IMG/VR virus record: IMGVR_UViG_2684622620_000010 | Coordinates: 1-16,330 of that record | From: a virus | Taxonomy: Duplodnaviria; Heunggongvirae; Uroviricota; Caudoviricetes | Length of the DNA: 16,330 nucleotides | Direction: 5' to 3' (one strand) | Part shown: one piece after another, positions 9,063 to 16,330 of the stretch | Numbering within the stretch: position 1 is the first letter of the stretch | Layout: every line of letters starts with the position of its first letter | Position numbers and translations under genes: made by a program | Notes under the pieces: generated by a model | Databases searched by the model: none | What the model was told of the DNA's origin: nothing | The model's input: only the letters and a program-made list of their open reading frames with translations

Positions 9063-9257
9063 ATGCTGCGATGGCAACCGGGAGCAACTCTGCTCTCCGC
9101 ATTTGATATCAAAATTGGCCGACTGTCGGCCAGCGTCAGGAAACAGGCCTTGACCGAGTCTGATATTGCCCGTGCCTGCCATGTGGCAGATGACGCAATA
9201 AGCTACATAATGAGGAAAGACCATGAACGATCTGTTAAACGACGAGGAACTGGTTGA
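9063..9257 (+). CDS. Hypothetical small protein (64 aa)
   Basis: ATG at 9063 preceded by AGGAGG with 6-nt spacing; the ORF-track start at 9033 is a TTG. Overlaps the excisionase start by 35 nt in another frame. Confidence 0.4.
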   Translation: MLRWQPGATLLSAFDIKIGRLSASVRKQALTESDIARACHVADDAISYIMRKDHERSVKRRGTG

Positions 9258-9438
9258 ACTGACCGGCTACCAGTTCCCGTCAAAACAATGCGGCGCCCTG
9301 ACCCGTGCCGGGATCTCTTATGTAAAACGCCGCGATGGGCGACCTCGCGTCACATGGACGCATGTAAACGCTGCGCTGTCCGGAGCAAGGTCCGTGCAGA
9401 TTGCCGAAGAAGAACAACCAAATTTTGATGCAATCTGA
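9223..9438 (+). CDS. Excisionase-like protein (DUF4224-type Xis)
   Basis: 71-aa ORF directly upstream of, and TGATG-overlapping, the integrase gene, with the motif ELTGYQFPSKQCGALTRAGISYVKRRDGRPRVTWTHV typical of small phage excisionases. Confidence 0.6.
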   Translation: MNDLLNDEELVELTGYQFPSKQCGALTRAGISYVKRRDGRPRVTWTHVNAALSGARSVQIAEEEQPNFDAI

Positions 9439-10466
9439 TGAGCAGAACACGAAAAAGCGCGGAAGATAATAAGCTGCCACCCCGCGTTTATAAAAACAAA
9501 TACAGCTATTATTTCAAACCAACGCCCCGAGAGTGTATTACGCTGGGTAAAATTAATGATCTGTCAATTGCTCAGGTATGGGTGAAATACGAAGAGATCC
9601 TGAATGATGCTATTGATGTCATGACGTTCAGTAAACTCTGGAACAAATTTCTCAACAGCACCTACTATCTGGAACTCGGTCAGCGTACACAAAAGGATTA
9701 TCTGCAGCACCAGAAGAAATTACTCGCCGCGTTCGGGAAAATGAAAGCCGACAACATAAAACCTGCTCACGTGCGGCTGTATATGGACAAGCGGGGGCTG
9801 AAAAGCAAAACACAGGCGAACCATGAAAAAGCCAGTATGTCGCGAGTATTCCGCTGGGGATACGAACGCGGATACGTAAAAGGGAATCCATGCCAGGGCG
9901 TCAGTAAATTTTCCCTCAAGCCCCGCGACTACTATTTCACGGACGAGGAATATATCGCAATTTATCAGGAGGCATCTCCCGTTTTACAGTGCGCGATGGA
10001 GATCGCCTATCTGTGCGCCACGCGGATCGGCGATATACGAAAGCTGACGTGGGATCAGGTTATGAGTAAGGGTTTGTTTATCCAACAGGGTAAGACTGGC
10101 AAAAAGCAGATCAAACAGTATTCAGAGCGACTGACGTTCGCACTTGAGCAGGCGAAATCGTTGGGAGGACAACATTTCGTGGTCTGTAACAAATATGGCG
10201 GGCAATACAGTTATACCGGATTTAACGATATCTGGCGTAAAGCCAGGGCGGCGGCAAGTGAAAAGCTGGGCTACCCGATTACGGGAACGTTTCACGATTT
10301 AAAAGCGAAGGGGATCTCAGACTACGACGGAAGCAGTAAAGAAAAGCAGTTGTTCTCTGGTCACAAAACTGAGGCGCAGGTGCTGACGTATGATCGCAAA
10401 CCTGCAGTTTCTCCGACTCTGGATATTCCGGTGCTGGATGTCACAGTTCTGAGCAGAAACCCGTGA
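9438..10466 (+). CDS. Tyrosine integrase (lambda Int family)
   Basis: 342-aa ORF with the C-terminal catalytic region TFHDLKAKGISDY...SGHKTEAQVLTYDRK, aligning to lambda Int TFHELRSLSARLY...GHKSDTMASQYRD (from memory). Adjacent to the tRNA-Ser 3' end. Confidence 0.85.
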   Translation: MSRTRKSAEDNKLPPRVYKNKYSYYFKPTPRECITLGKINDLSIAQVWVKYEEILNDAIDVMTFSKLWNKFLNSTYYLELGQRTQKDYLQHQKKLLAAFGKMKADNIKPAHVRLYMDKRGLKSKTQANHEKASMSRVFRWGYERGYVKGNPCQGVSKFSLKPRDYYFTDEEYIAIYQEASPVLQCAMEIAYLCATRIGDIRKLTWDQVMSKGLFIQQGKTGKKQIKQYSERLTFALEQAKSLGGQHFVVCNKYGGQYSYTGFNDIWRKARAAASEKLGYPITGTFHDLKAKGISDYDGSSKEKQLFSGHKTEAQVLTYDRKPAVSPTLDIPVLDVTVLSRNP

Positions 10467-10473
10467 CGGTCTA

Positions 10474-10507
10474 ATTCTAAGTGAATATTCTAAGTCCGTT
10501 CTAACAG
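10474..10507. repeat. Direct repeats ATTCTAAGT / ATTCTAAGT / TTCTAACAG (candidate integrase arm-type sites)
   Basis: Three copies starting at 10474, 10487 and 10499 (12-13 bp spacing) between the int stop and the tRNA-Ser 3' end. Confidence 0.4.
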
Positions 10508-10551
10508 GGGGATCGACGGTGAAAAGTGAGTGACGTAAGTCATTGATAAAG

Positions 10552-10641
10552 TGGCGGAGAGAGGGGGATTTGAACCCCCGGTAGAGTTGCCCCTACTCCG
10601 GTTTTCGAGACCGGTCCGTTCAGCCGCTCCGGCATCTCTCC
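10552..10641 (-). tRNA. serU: tRNA-Ser (anticodon CGA)
   Basis: Reverse complement reads GGAGAGATGCCGGAGCGGCTGAACGGACCGGTCTCGAAAACCGG...GGGGGTTCAAATCCCCCTCTCTCCGCCA: 7-bp acceptor stem, anticodon loop CTCGAAA, long variable arm, T-loop GTTCAAATC, encoded CCA. Confidence 0.9.
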
Positions 10642-10734
10642 GTTCAGATGGTTGCCATGATGCCAGGAAATTTGGCATTTTAACAGTCCCTGTCCGTGCA
10701 ATTTTGTTCAAGTGACGAGTTTGCGAGCAAAACG

Positions 10735-11532
10735 ATGATTAAGTGGCCCTGGAAAGTACAAGAATCAGCACATCAAACTGCCCTTCCCTGGCAGGAAGCA
10801 CTATCGATCCCCCTTTTAACGTGTCTGACGGAACAGGAACAAAGCAAATTAGTCACTCTTGCCGAACGTTTTTTACAGCAAAAGCGGCTTGTTCCTTTAC
10901 AGGGCTTTGAACTGGATTCATTAAGAAGCTGCCGGATAGCACTTCTATTTTGCCTACCCGTTCTGGAGTTAGGACTGGAATGGCTGGATGGTTTTCATGA
11001 AGTCTTAATTTATCCTGCGCCATTTGTGGTCGATGATGAATGGGAAGACGATATCGGTCTGGTGCATAACCAACGTATTGTTCAGTCAGGTCAGAGCTGG
11101 CAGCAAGGGCCTATCGTTTTGAACTGGTTGGATATACAAGATTCTTTTGATGCTTCTGGTTTTAACCTGATTATTCATGAAGTCGCTCATAAGCTGGACA
11201 CCCGTAACGGCGATCGCGCCAGCGGAGTTCCCTTTATTCCGTTGCGTGAGGTTGCTGGCTGGGAACACGATCTTCATGCTGCAATGAACAACATTCAGGA
11301 AGAAATCGAATTGGTTGGCGAGAATGCGGCGAGCATTGATGCTTATGCTGCCAGTGATCCTGCTGAATGTTTTGCCGTACTTTCTGAATATTTCTTTAGC
11401 GCCCCAGAACTTTTTGCTCCTCGTTTCCCTTCATTGTGGCAACGTTTCTGCCAATTTTATCAACAAGATCCTTTGCAGAGACTGCATCGCACTAATGATA
11501 CAGACTCGTTTTCGGCGACGAATGTTCATTAA
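10735..11532 (+). CDS. mtfA: MtfA-like zinc-dependent peptidase (Mlc titration factor A)
   Basis: Begins [14 protein letters not shown]..., has the HEVAHKLD (HExxH) motif and the C-terminal region of MtfA/YeeI. The ORF-track start at 10696 is a GTG and is rejected. Confidence 0.8.
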
Positions 11533-11585
11533 TTAACAACTTTGCAGATTAATTAACCAATTGAAATGACTTATGAAATTTAGTA

Positions 11586-11614
11586 TTGACAGACAAGGTA
11601 CCGCTAAGTAATAT
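11586..11614 (+). promoter_or_regulatory. Sigma70 promoter of the tRNA-Asn gene
   Basis: TTGACA (11586-11591), 17-bp spacer, TAATAT (11609-11614), followed by a GC-rich discriminator TCGCCCC; the tRNA starts about 19 nt downstream. Confidence 0.55.
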
Positions 11615-11632
11615 TCGCCCCGTTCACACGAT

Positions 11633-11708
11633 TCCTCTGTAGTTCAGTCGGTAGAACGGCGGACTGTTAATCCGTATGTCACTGGTTCGAGTCCAGTCAG
11701 AGGAGCCA
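11633..11708 (+). tRNA. tRNA-Asn (anticodon GUU)
   Basis: TCCTCTGTAGTTCAGTCGGTAGAACGGCGGACTGTTAATCCGTATGTCACTGGTTCGAGTCCAGTCAGAGGAGCCA: 76 nt, anticodon loop CTGTTAA, T-loop GGTTCGAGTCC, encoded CCA. Which of the identical asn tRNA gene copies this is cannot be told from the sequence. Confidence 0.92.
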
Positions 11709-11796
11709 AATTCTAAAAATTCGCTTCTTAGCGCAATGTCACTAACCTTAGTTGAACATTGTTTATTAACGGATAGCGGGTTTTTAACATCTTAAG

Positions 11797-15020: not shown

Positions 15021-15074
15021 TGAACCGCCCCGGAAATCCTGGAGACTAAACTCCCTGAGAAAGAGGTAAACAGG

Positions 15075-15401
15075 ATGACTAAAAATACTCGTTTTTCCCC
15101 CGAAGTCCGTCAGCGGGCGATTCGTATGGTTCTGGAAAGTCAGGATGAATATGACTCACAGTGGGCGGCAATTTGTTCCATTGCCCCAAAGATTGGCTGT
15201 ACGCCGGAGACTCTGCGTGTCTGGGTTCGCCAGCATGAGCGGGATACCGGGGGCGGTGATGGTGGGCTCACCAGCGCTGAACGTCAGCGTCTGAAAGAGC
15301 TGGAACGTGAAAATCGTGAACTGCGCCGCAGTAACGATATCCTTCGCCAGGCTTCCGCTTATTTTGCGAAGGCGGAGTTCGACCGCCTCTGGAAAAAATG
15401 A
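15075..15401 (+). CDS. IS3-family transposase OrfA (copy B)
   Basis: Identical 108-aa translation to 55-381. Confidence 0.9.
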
Positions 15402-16288
15402 TGCCACTGCTGGATAAGCTGCGTGAGCAGTACGGGGTCGGACCGGTATGCAGCGAACTGCATATTGCCCCGTCAACGTATTACCATTGTCAGCAACAGC
15501 GACATCATCCGGATAAACGCAGTGCCCGTGCGCAGCACGACGACTGGCTGAAGAGAGAGATACAGCGCGTATACGATGAAAATCATCAGGTGTACGGTGT
15601 GCGTAAAGTCTGGCGTCAGTTGTTACGGGAAGGAATCAGGGTGGCCAGATGTACAGTGGCACGTCTCATGGCGGTTATGGGACTTGCCGGTGTTCTCCGG
15701 GGTAAAAAGGTCCGTACGACCATCAGCCGGAAAGCCGTTGCCGCAGGCGACCGCGTAAACCGTCAGTTCGTGGCAGAACGACCTGACCAGCTGTGGGTGG
15801 CTGATTTTACTTACGTCAGCACATGGCAGGGCTTCGTCTATGTGGCGTTTATCATTGATGTGTTTGCCGGATACATCGTGGGGTGGCGGGTCTCATCGTC
15901 TATGGAAACGACATTCGTGCTGGATGCGCTGGAGCAGGCGTTGTGGGCCCGTCGTCCGTCTGGCACCATCCATCACAGCGATAAAGGCTCTCAGTATGTG
16001 TCACTGGCCTATACGGAGCGACTAAAAGAAGCCGGATTACTGGCATCAACAGGGAGTACAGGCGACTCGTATGACAACGCGATGGCTGAGAGCATCAATG
16101 GTCTTTACAAAGCGGAGGTAATACACCGTAAGAGCTGGAAAAACCGTGCAGAAGTGGAACTGGCCACACTAACGTGGGTGGACTGGTATAACAATCGACG
16201 ATTGCTGGGAAGGCTGGGCCATACTCCTCCGGCAGAAGCAGAAAAAGCTTATTATGCTTCCATCGGAAACGATGATCTGGCAGCCTGA
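15398..16288 (+). CDS. IS3-family transposase OrfB (copy B)
   Basis: Identical 296-aa translation to 378-1268. Confidence 0.9.
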
Positions 16289-16330
16289 GTTCACAGATAA
16301 AACACTCTCCAGGAAACCCGGGGCGGTTCA

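Follow-up and report, generated by a model that had tools for sequence, protein, structure and literature searches.

Candidate arm-type integrase sites at the serU junction of a lambdoid prophage in Escherichia coli

A serine tRNA gene of the E. coli chromosome and the integrase gene of a prophage beside it are separated by less than a hundred base pairs, and within this interval stand three short direct repeats. What these repeats do, and where the recombination that placed them next to the tRNA gene took place, are the questions that this locus raises. The stretch of DNA analysed as a whole (16,330 nt; hereafter the window) is E. coli chromosome, recognisable by serU, mtfA (10696-11532), asnT and yeeJ, with a lambdoid prophage on its left. 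The region is best read as the attR junction of that prophage, where the P' arm of the phage is joined to serU, and the repeats are most likely the arm-type sites of the P' arm for the integrase (Int). The tRNA genes that frame the argument are the following:

10552-10641, minus strand: serU, an intact tRNA-Ser(CGA) gene found by ARAGORN and identical to K-12 serU
11633-11708: tRNA-Asn(GTT) gene, found by ARAGORN

The tRNA-Ser call agrees with a first-pass annotation of the locus, which had placed the 3' terminus of the tRNA at 10552 on the minus strand.

The prophage can be read in its complete form in E. coli APEC20/16, a strain 100% identical to the window over 9400-11750 and 1311-6000. There, yodB and serU flank a prophage of ~45 kb whose early genes resemble those of lambda and whose late region is of the contractile-tail kind. 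A search of 5426 complete E. coli genomes found the junction of the window in 22. The window itself looks like a contig ending in repeats: identical 1310-bp copies of an IS1203/IS629-type element (IS3 family), in the same orientation, bound it exactly at 1-1310 and 15021-16330. With APEC20/16 as the reference, the left copy interrupts the DnaB-like helicase gene of the prophage; the right copy breaks up yeeJ. The joint between IS and prophage at 1310 was found in none of the complete E. coli genomes. Because the prophage of the source genome is cut by the IS at this point, this copy may no longer be functional. Repeats of other kinds occur elsewhere in the window. TCTCTG is found three times at an exact spacing of 12 bp (2677-2706) inside a RepO-like ORF (2087-3187, minus strand), and these copies are probably the origin iterons of a lambdoid replication module. 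At least seven copies of GACCA lie within 5414-5625 (TGACCA at 5414, 5424 and 5436, with more copies to ~5620), upstream of an ORF at 5692-6012, in a stretch that holds only short ORFs in the window and no annotated gene in APEC20/16; they may serve as a series of binding sites for a protein.

The far end of the complete prophage is informative about the site of integration. Integration had been proposed at the 3' end of tRNA-Ser(CGA), with the partner att site and the other end of the prophage lying outside the window and no repeat of the tRNA 3' segment within it; none was indeed found there. The direct repeat is present in the flanking sequence at the far end of the APEC20/16 prophage, where 10536-10612 recurs exactly. 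Two features follow from this comparison:

10536-10612, no strand assigned: 77-bp att identity block; the exact 77-mer also lies at the APEC20/16 locus (L003) 23445-23521, minus strand, adjoining yodB
10603-10609, minus strand: anticodon loop of serU, the presumed 7-bp overlap (strand-exchange) region, placed from the end of the block

The block consists of TAAGTCATTGATAAAG, the 16 bp 3' of the tRNA, and then the 3' 61 nt of serU, which by inference are phage-donated. Its two copies part on one side at 10535/10536 and on the tRNA side after GAGACC (10612), 3 bp into the 5' strand of the anticodon stem; the identity accordingly takes in the whole anticodon loop (10603-10609) and 3 bp of the stem on its 5' side. 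Two free phages, Chris1 and S.Typ Adana, have attP blocks that stop at this very position, GAGACC(G). Among integrases of the lambda family that use tRNA genes, integration at the anticodon loop is established. Since the identity block runs to the anticodon stem-loop, the crossover by analogy probably lay in the anticodon loop of serU and not at its 3' end. Thus, the duplication in APEC20/16 upholds serU as the target, whereas the reach of the 77-bp block probably moves the assumed crossover from the 3' end of the tRNA to the anticodon stem-loop. Because the two 77-bp copies are identical, the crossover is not placeable from sequence within them. The complete genome of E. coli W13-16 carries a truncated prophage of a related type at serU (the 606R7 type, discussed below) that lacks attL, so its polymorphisms gave no crossover position either.

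On the other side of the junction, the integrase stop codon (TGA, 10464-10466) is followed by CGGTCTAATTCTAAGTGAATATTCTAAGTCCGTTCTAACAGG, in which ATTCTAAG(T) begins at 10474 and 10487 and GTTCTAAC at 10498, so that the order after the stop codon is CGGTCTA-ATTCTAAGT-GAAT-ATTCTAAGT-CC-GTTCTAAC-AGG. Scored with a position weight matrix (PWM), the repeats are:

10474-10482, plus strand: candidate arm-type repeat 1, ATTCTAAGT, an exact 9-mer (PWM score 15.7)
10487-10495, plus strand: candidate arm-type repeat 2, ATTCTAAGT, 13 bp after repeat 1 (PWM score 16.95, the maximum of the window)
10498-10505, plus strand: candidate arm-type repeat 3, GTTCTAAC, 11 bp after repeat 2 (PWM score 11.3)

The ATTCTAA(G) direct repeats that the first-pass annotation had reported between int and tRNA-Ser are therefore present at 10474, 10487 and 10498, but the spacing of 12-13 bp given for them has to be corrected to 13 and 11 bp (TTCTAA starts at 10475, 10488 and 10499). 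The variant in the third copy recurs elsewhere, as the third copy in Citrobacter amalonaticus (L017), GTTCTAACAG, is the same variant. TTCTAA as such is no commoner than expected, with 6 copies over the whole length of the window against 6.8. It is the clustering of the triplet that lies well outside what chance produces. When 10467-10535 was shuffled 20,000 times by dinucleotides, a series of three copies of any one 6-mer, each 9-15 bp from the next, turned up in 2 of the shuffles; two wider intervals treated in the same way gave 5 and 8 per 20,000. Clusters of this kind number three in the whole 16.3-kb window. The PWM score of repeat 1 was unequalled among 88,552 background positions of the prophage.

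The protein that would read these repeats, and the gene that precedes it, are given by three features:

9438-10466, plus strand: int, encoding a tyrosine integrase of 342 aa, probably of the heterobivalent lambda-Int type (Phage_integrase match; lambda Int is the closest solved relative)
9438-9623, plus strand: predicted arm-binding domain, Int residues 1-62, with a predicted lambda-Int-like fold
9223-9438, plus strand: putative excisionase or recombination directionality factor (RDF) of 71 aa (DUF4224, E 1.5e-16; PHROG 1266 'excisionase', E 2.4e-30)

The integrase shares 23% identity with lambda Int over residues 5-318 (tblastn; about 21-23% overall), and lambda Int is its best match among solved structures. 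In an AF2 model (pLDDT 82.6), an N-terminal unit with strands at 17-19, 23-26 and 34-38 and a helix at 44-59 precedes the core-binding and catalytic domains, and the top Foldseek matches are to full-length lambda Int, over ~351 aligned columns. The predicted structure thus contains a separate N-terminal domain of ~60 aa, made of a three-stranded sheet and a helix, and for residues 1-62 the predicted fold resembles the arm-binding domain of lambda Int. The Pfam profile PF00589 matches with 41.8 bits (cut-off 27.1), a match that covers only profile positions 4-132 of 172. Aligned to lambda Int, the catalytic residues R196, K219, H286, H309 and Y318 correspond to R212, K235, H308, H333 and Y342. 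The second catalytic Arg of lambda, R311, aligns with K289 (codon 10302-10304), so that five of the six catalytic residues are kept; K289, just short of which the PF00589 match stops, is invariant in 34 family members, in the motif HD[IL]KAKG. Upstream, the DUF4224 ORF overlaps the start of int by 1 nt at its end. Its product is a putative excisionase by profile similarity, and the gene in the equivalent position of phage mEp390 is annotated as an excisionase; our literature search found no paper tying DUF4224 to excision. The adjacency of int and xis described for this locus is borne out to this extent, with int at 9438-10466 adjoining the putative xis at 9223-9438.

The repeats can be followed through the relatives of this integrase, which were drawn at 40-82% integrase identity from phage records, species-representative genomes and viral contigs. 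Three direct repeats stand at or just after the int stop codon in ~27 of ~50 non-redundant relatives, among them Enterobacterales, Gilliamella, Shewanella and others, with start-to-start spacings of 13+11, 13+10 or 12+10 bp. About half of the relatives surveyed are without the triplet; in some of these (e.g. Evi) the att is inverted, and some of the rest may be relics. The motif of the window, ATATTCTAAG, is shared by Raoultella, Citrobacter amalonaticus, Rosenbergiella and Gilliamella, and other phages carry ATTCTACG, ATATTCCAAG, ATATACCAA(G/C), ACGCTAAC, TCTACGA, ATGGCGAA, TTTTCTCA, ATTCGGAA or TATTAGGAA. The motif therefore varies between phages, and the copies within one phage change together. 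At three loci (L013, L017 and L019), TTCTAAG adjoins a different tRNA target, which links the repeats to the integrase rather than to the core. A correspondence is also visible between the motif and residues of the N-terminal domain of the integrase: the class YSYY[YFL]K goes with TTCTAAG and TTCTACG, YSY[VI][WF]KP with TACCAA and TTCCAAG, GK[SA]x[YF]E[FY] with motifs ending in GGAA or GCGAA, and RPSGYYWKP with TTTTCTCA. In the AF2 model, the YSYY/YSYV segment is located in the second strand of the N-terminal domain (23-26) and immediately behind it. Such covariation is what recognition by the N-terminal domain would predict, though it is confounded by shared ancestry. Overall identity of the N-terminal domain was also tried as a predictor of the motif and was rejected, as it does not sort the phages by motif; only the residue-class patterns do.

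The other arm of attP bears on the identity of the protein that would bind the repeats. In the four free phages Chris1, mEp390, S.Typ Adana and ZF40, the far arm contains one inverted and one direct copy of the motif, at 178-211 bp and 241-276 bp, respectively, after the first near-arm copy and 62-65 bp apart from each other, and no exact copies occur elsewhere in these four loci. The repeats could alternatively be sites for the DUF4224 protein, acting as excisionase or directionality factor, in the manner of the tandem X1-X1.5-X2 sites of lambda Xis. Sites for Xis proteins and other RDFs are likewise typically tandem direct repeats at about one helical turn, the putative RDF gene adjoins int, and the far arm of the present prophage, taken from APEC20/16, yielded no strong copy of the motif in exact, mismatch and PWM scans (the matrix being built from 21 family sites). 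RDF sites, however, cluster on one arm, unlike the motif in the free-phage relatives, whose single inverted and direct far-arm copies fit Int sites such as P1 and P2. The triplet lies on the int-proximal arm, abutting the int stop codon exactly like lambda P'1-P'3, and the class of motif tracks the class of the Int N-terminal domain. Binding by the DUF4224 protein is thus considered unlikely, and the repeats are better understood as sites for Int.

The far arm of the present prophage deserves a closer description in this context. Its PWM scan gave four weak hits at the threshold, with 1.1 expected. Where the family predicts the inverted copy (~185 bp after the first copy), AAAGAATA occurs at 186 with a match of 6/8, and the predicted direct position has a match of 5/8. 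The AAAGAATA site reads TAAGAATA in a divergent relative. In divergent far arms of three further genomes, the inverted position expected from the family still holds AGAATAT, but these arms are too alike overall for this to be decisive. A far arm of the APEC20/16 type occurs together with this integrase in 20 genomes. In E. coli GF131 (L110), a far arm ~85% identical to that of the present prophage is joined to a different tRNA-like block, with a Leu-type 3' part as in mEp390 and ZF40, which suggests that att arms and cores have been reshuffled between phages of this integrase family.

Between the repeats and serU lies a single further candidate site:

10536-10548, minus strand: IHF-consensus site, a candidate H'-like bend, TATCAATGACTTA = WATCAANNNNTTR, the only exact match in the window

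This site falls inside the identity block, 3 bp from the 3' end of the tRNA. In the family, 20 of 27 loci have an IHF-consensus match of this orientation ~28-32 bp beyond repeat 3, when no more than one mismatch is allowed; among control segments the figure is 9.5%. Measured from the putative bend, the candidate arm sites lie 37-68 bp away in one direction and the anticodon loop 61-67 bp away in the other, and since they flank the IHF site in this way, a U-turn there would bring the two together. The total distance from the repeats to the presumed crossover is about 100-130 bp. These observations can be assembled into a mechanism, in which Int would bind at the repeats and IHF at 10536-10548, as judged from the sequence. 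The N-terminal domain of Int would bind the three repeats after the int stop codon, while the core-binding and catalytic domains of the same protein would work at a distance of ~100-130 bp, probably on the anticodon stem-loop of serU. A sharp bend at the IHF site, roughly midway, would fold the arm back so that arm-bound Int could reach the crossover, a role that may be likened to that of lambda H' in serving P'1-P'3. Integration would have swapped the 3' 61 nt of serU and the 16 bp downstream for an identical phage copy, and the displaced host copy would have ended up at the far end of the prophage. The earlier view that the repeats are placed like arm-type integrase sites thus gains support from the conserved geometry, the far-arm copies in free phages, the predicted fold of the N-terminal domain and the IHF-like site.

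At relatives inserted in another tRNA gene (3' end TGGCGGAAGCGCAGAGATTCGAAC; L013, L017, L019, L023, L028, L031 and L053), a strong GC hairpin, GGGG(C/T)TACC-TTCG-GGTAACCCC, separates the repeats from the end of the tRNA; it lies ~20-60 bp beyond repeat 3 and overlaps the IHF-like match. It is absent from serU-type sites and is probably the terminator of the tRNA. The repeats might themselves act at the level of RNA or transcription, as a read-through terminator or processing signal of serU, or as a sib-like retroregulator of int. In favour of such a role, serU is transcribed towards the repeats, its native downstream sequence has been replaced by that of the phage, and a clear hairpin exists between repeats and tRNA in the relatives just described. 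That hairpin, however, is separate from the repeats; a scan of 10300-10700 found no terminator-like site near them, and minus-strand RNA of 10460-10555 folds no better than its shuffles (z = +0.8). A function in RNA is therefore the least probable of the explanations considered for the triplet, which is best regarded as a set of DNA sites for Int.

The same arrangement has left a trace in strains that lack the prophage. In K-12 W3110 (L002 2897-3017) and WP5-S17 (L106 2501-2621), a relic of ~120 bp to the left of serU is the equivalent of 10431-10551 of the window. It reads ...GAATATTCTACGATTGTTCTGTTTAGG..., and comprises the 3' end of an int gene (translating as ...QVLNVTVSNRKQ), one or two arm repeats (ATATTCTACG, GTTCTGTT) and an IHF-like site. 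The identity of the relic is 70% with the window and 78% with a relative whose motif is TTCTACG. As the 'empty' serU site of E. coli carries a decayed int end, repeats and an IHF-like site, its attB is a fossil attR. It also follows that the megablast boundary against prophage-free strains, at 10536, could not by itself define the core, because K-12-like sites carry the relic arm; the far end of the prophage was needed for this.

A decaying copy beside serU in prophage-free E. coli shows that such repeats can persist without a phage, and the prophage of the window is itself disrupted by an IS. It might be supposed from this that the triplet is a non-functional by-product, for example a slippage duplication or the decaying arm of an older att site, that plays no part in recombination. 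The shuffles, however, exclude chance, and relatives down to ~40% integrase identity keep the 13+11 geometry although their motif has changed, in every copy at once, a pattern of concerted change under constraint and not of decay. Such an origin is accordingly very improbable, and function as arm sites remains the preferred explanation.

Comparison with lambda shows how closely this layout follows a known one. In lambda attP, as with the candidate sites here, the int stop codon is followed by three tandem arm sites in the same orientation, ~10-13 bp apart (P'3-P'2-P'1), then by an IHF site in the same orientation (H') and by the core. The integrases share a three-domain architecture, lambda Int being the closest solved structure, and a small xis gene (here putative) lies upstream and overlaps int. 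The two systems differ in the arm motif (CAGTCACTAT in lambda, ATTCTAAG here), in arm spacing (10-11 bp against 13+11 bp), in R311 against Lys, and in the Xis family of lambda against a DUF4224 candidate. Additionally, the identity block is 15 bp in lambda and 77 bp here, where the target is a tRNA gene. With such a target and block, the arm sites come to lie ~100-130 bp from the presumed crossover, compared with 54-84 bp in lambda. The P' arm architecture is in itself classical, here combined with a tRNA target and a long identity block, and is unsurprising to a specialist.

Among phages closer to the present one, serU is the documented insertion site of ST64B (PMC10100743). The Salmonella phage S.Typ Adana is similar in size to ST64B, and host, size and site suggest that it is ST64B itself. 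Its integrase is 55% identical to that of the window, and its attP has a serU-like 3' part, three copies of TTTTCTCA at 13+10 bp after int, and far-arm copies; it differs in arm motif and in tRNA sequence. Integrases 46-49% identical are found in mEp390, the attP of which is annotated as putative, and in the Pectobacterium phage ZF40. After int, mEp390 carries four copies of ATGGCGAA and ZF40 two of TATTAGGAA, both with inverted and direct copies in the far arm, and both differ from the present phage in their motifs and in using another tRNA, the block resembling a Leu-type 3' part. To our knowledge, the att sites of mEp390 and ZF40 have not been mapped experimentally. Prophages of the vB_EcoM-606R7 type share the serU-mtfA site, with an integrase 62% identical, but have a different phage backbone. 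Their three ATATTCCAAG repeats overlap the int stop codon, and TTCCAAG there is one base apart from TTCTAAG here. With 606R7-type prophages counted by a related integrase at serU, 1094 of 5426 complete E. coli genomes carry one. Beside them, serU (L004 2593-2639, corresponding to 10566-10612 of the window) departs from that of K-12 by two substitutions within the long extra arm, GGTAGAG to GGTGGAG and CCCCTAC to CCCCCAC; the two look compensatory, and both fall in the part that is predicted to be phage-donated.

Taken as a whole, the att site of a type of prophage resident at serU has been located, with its 77-bp block, candidate arm sites and candidate IHF site, in a tRNA gene where roughly one complete E. 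coli genome in five harbours a related element. Comparison across the family could help to mark the ends of prophages more accurately in annotation. The naturally occurring pairs of arm motif and N-terminal domain could serve in predicting or re-engineering the arm specificity of lambda-type integrases. It is conceivable, though on balance doubtful, that these elements represent an uncharacterised, large integrase subfamily of Enterobacterales and their neighbours, built on a constant arrangement in which three arm sites (13+11 bp) are followed after ~30 bp by an IHF site and then by a tRNA gene. In such a subfamily, an invariant Lys would stand for the second catalytic Arg, the code of arm recognition would be readable from the covariation of N-domain strand residues with the motif, and an attB that is a fossil attR could still recruit integrase and bias the choice of site or directionality. 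What makes the locus valuable is chiefly the collection of arm motifs across the family, together with the fossil arm within the attB of E. coli and the invariant Lys at the position of the second catalytic Arg.
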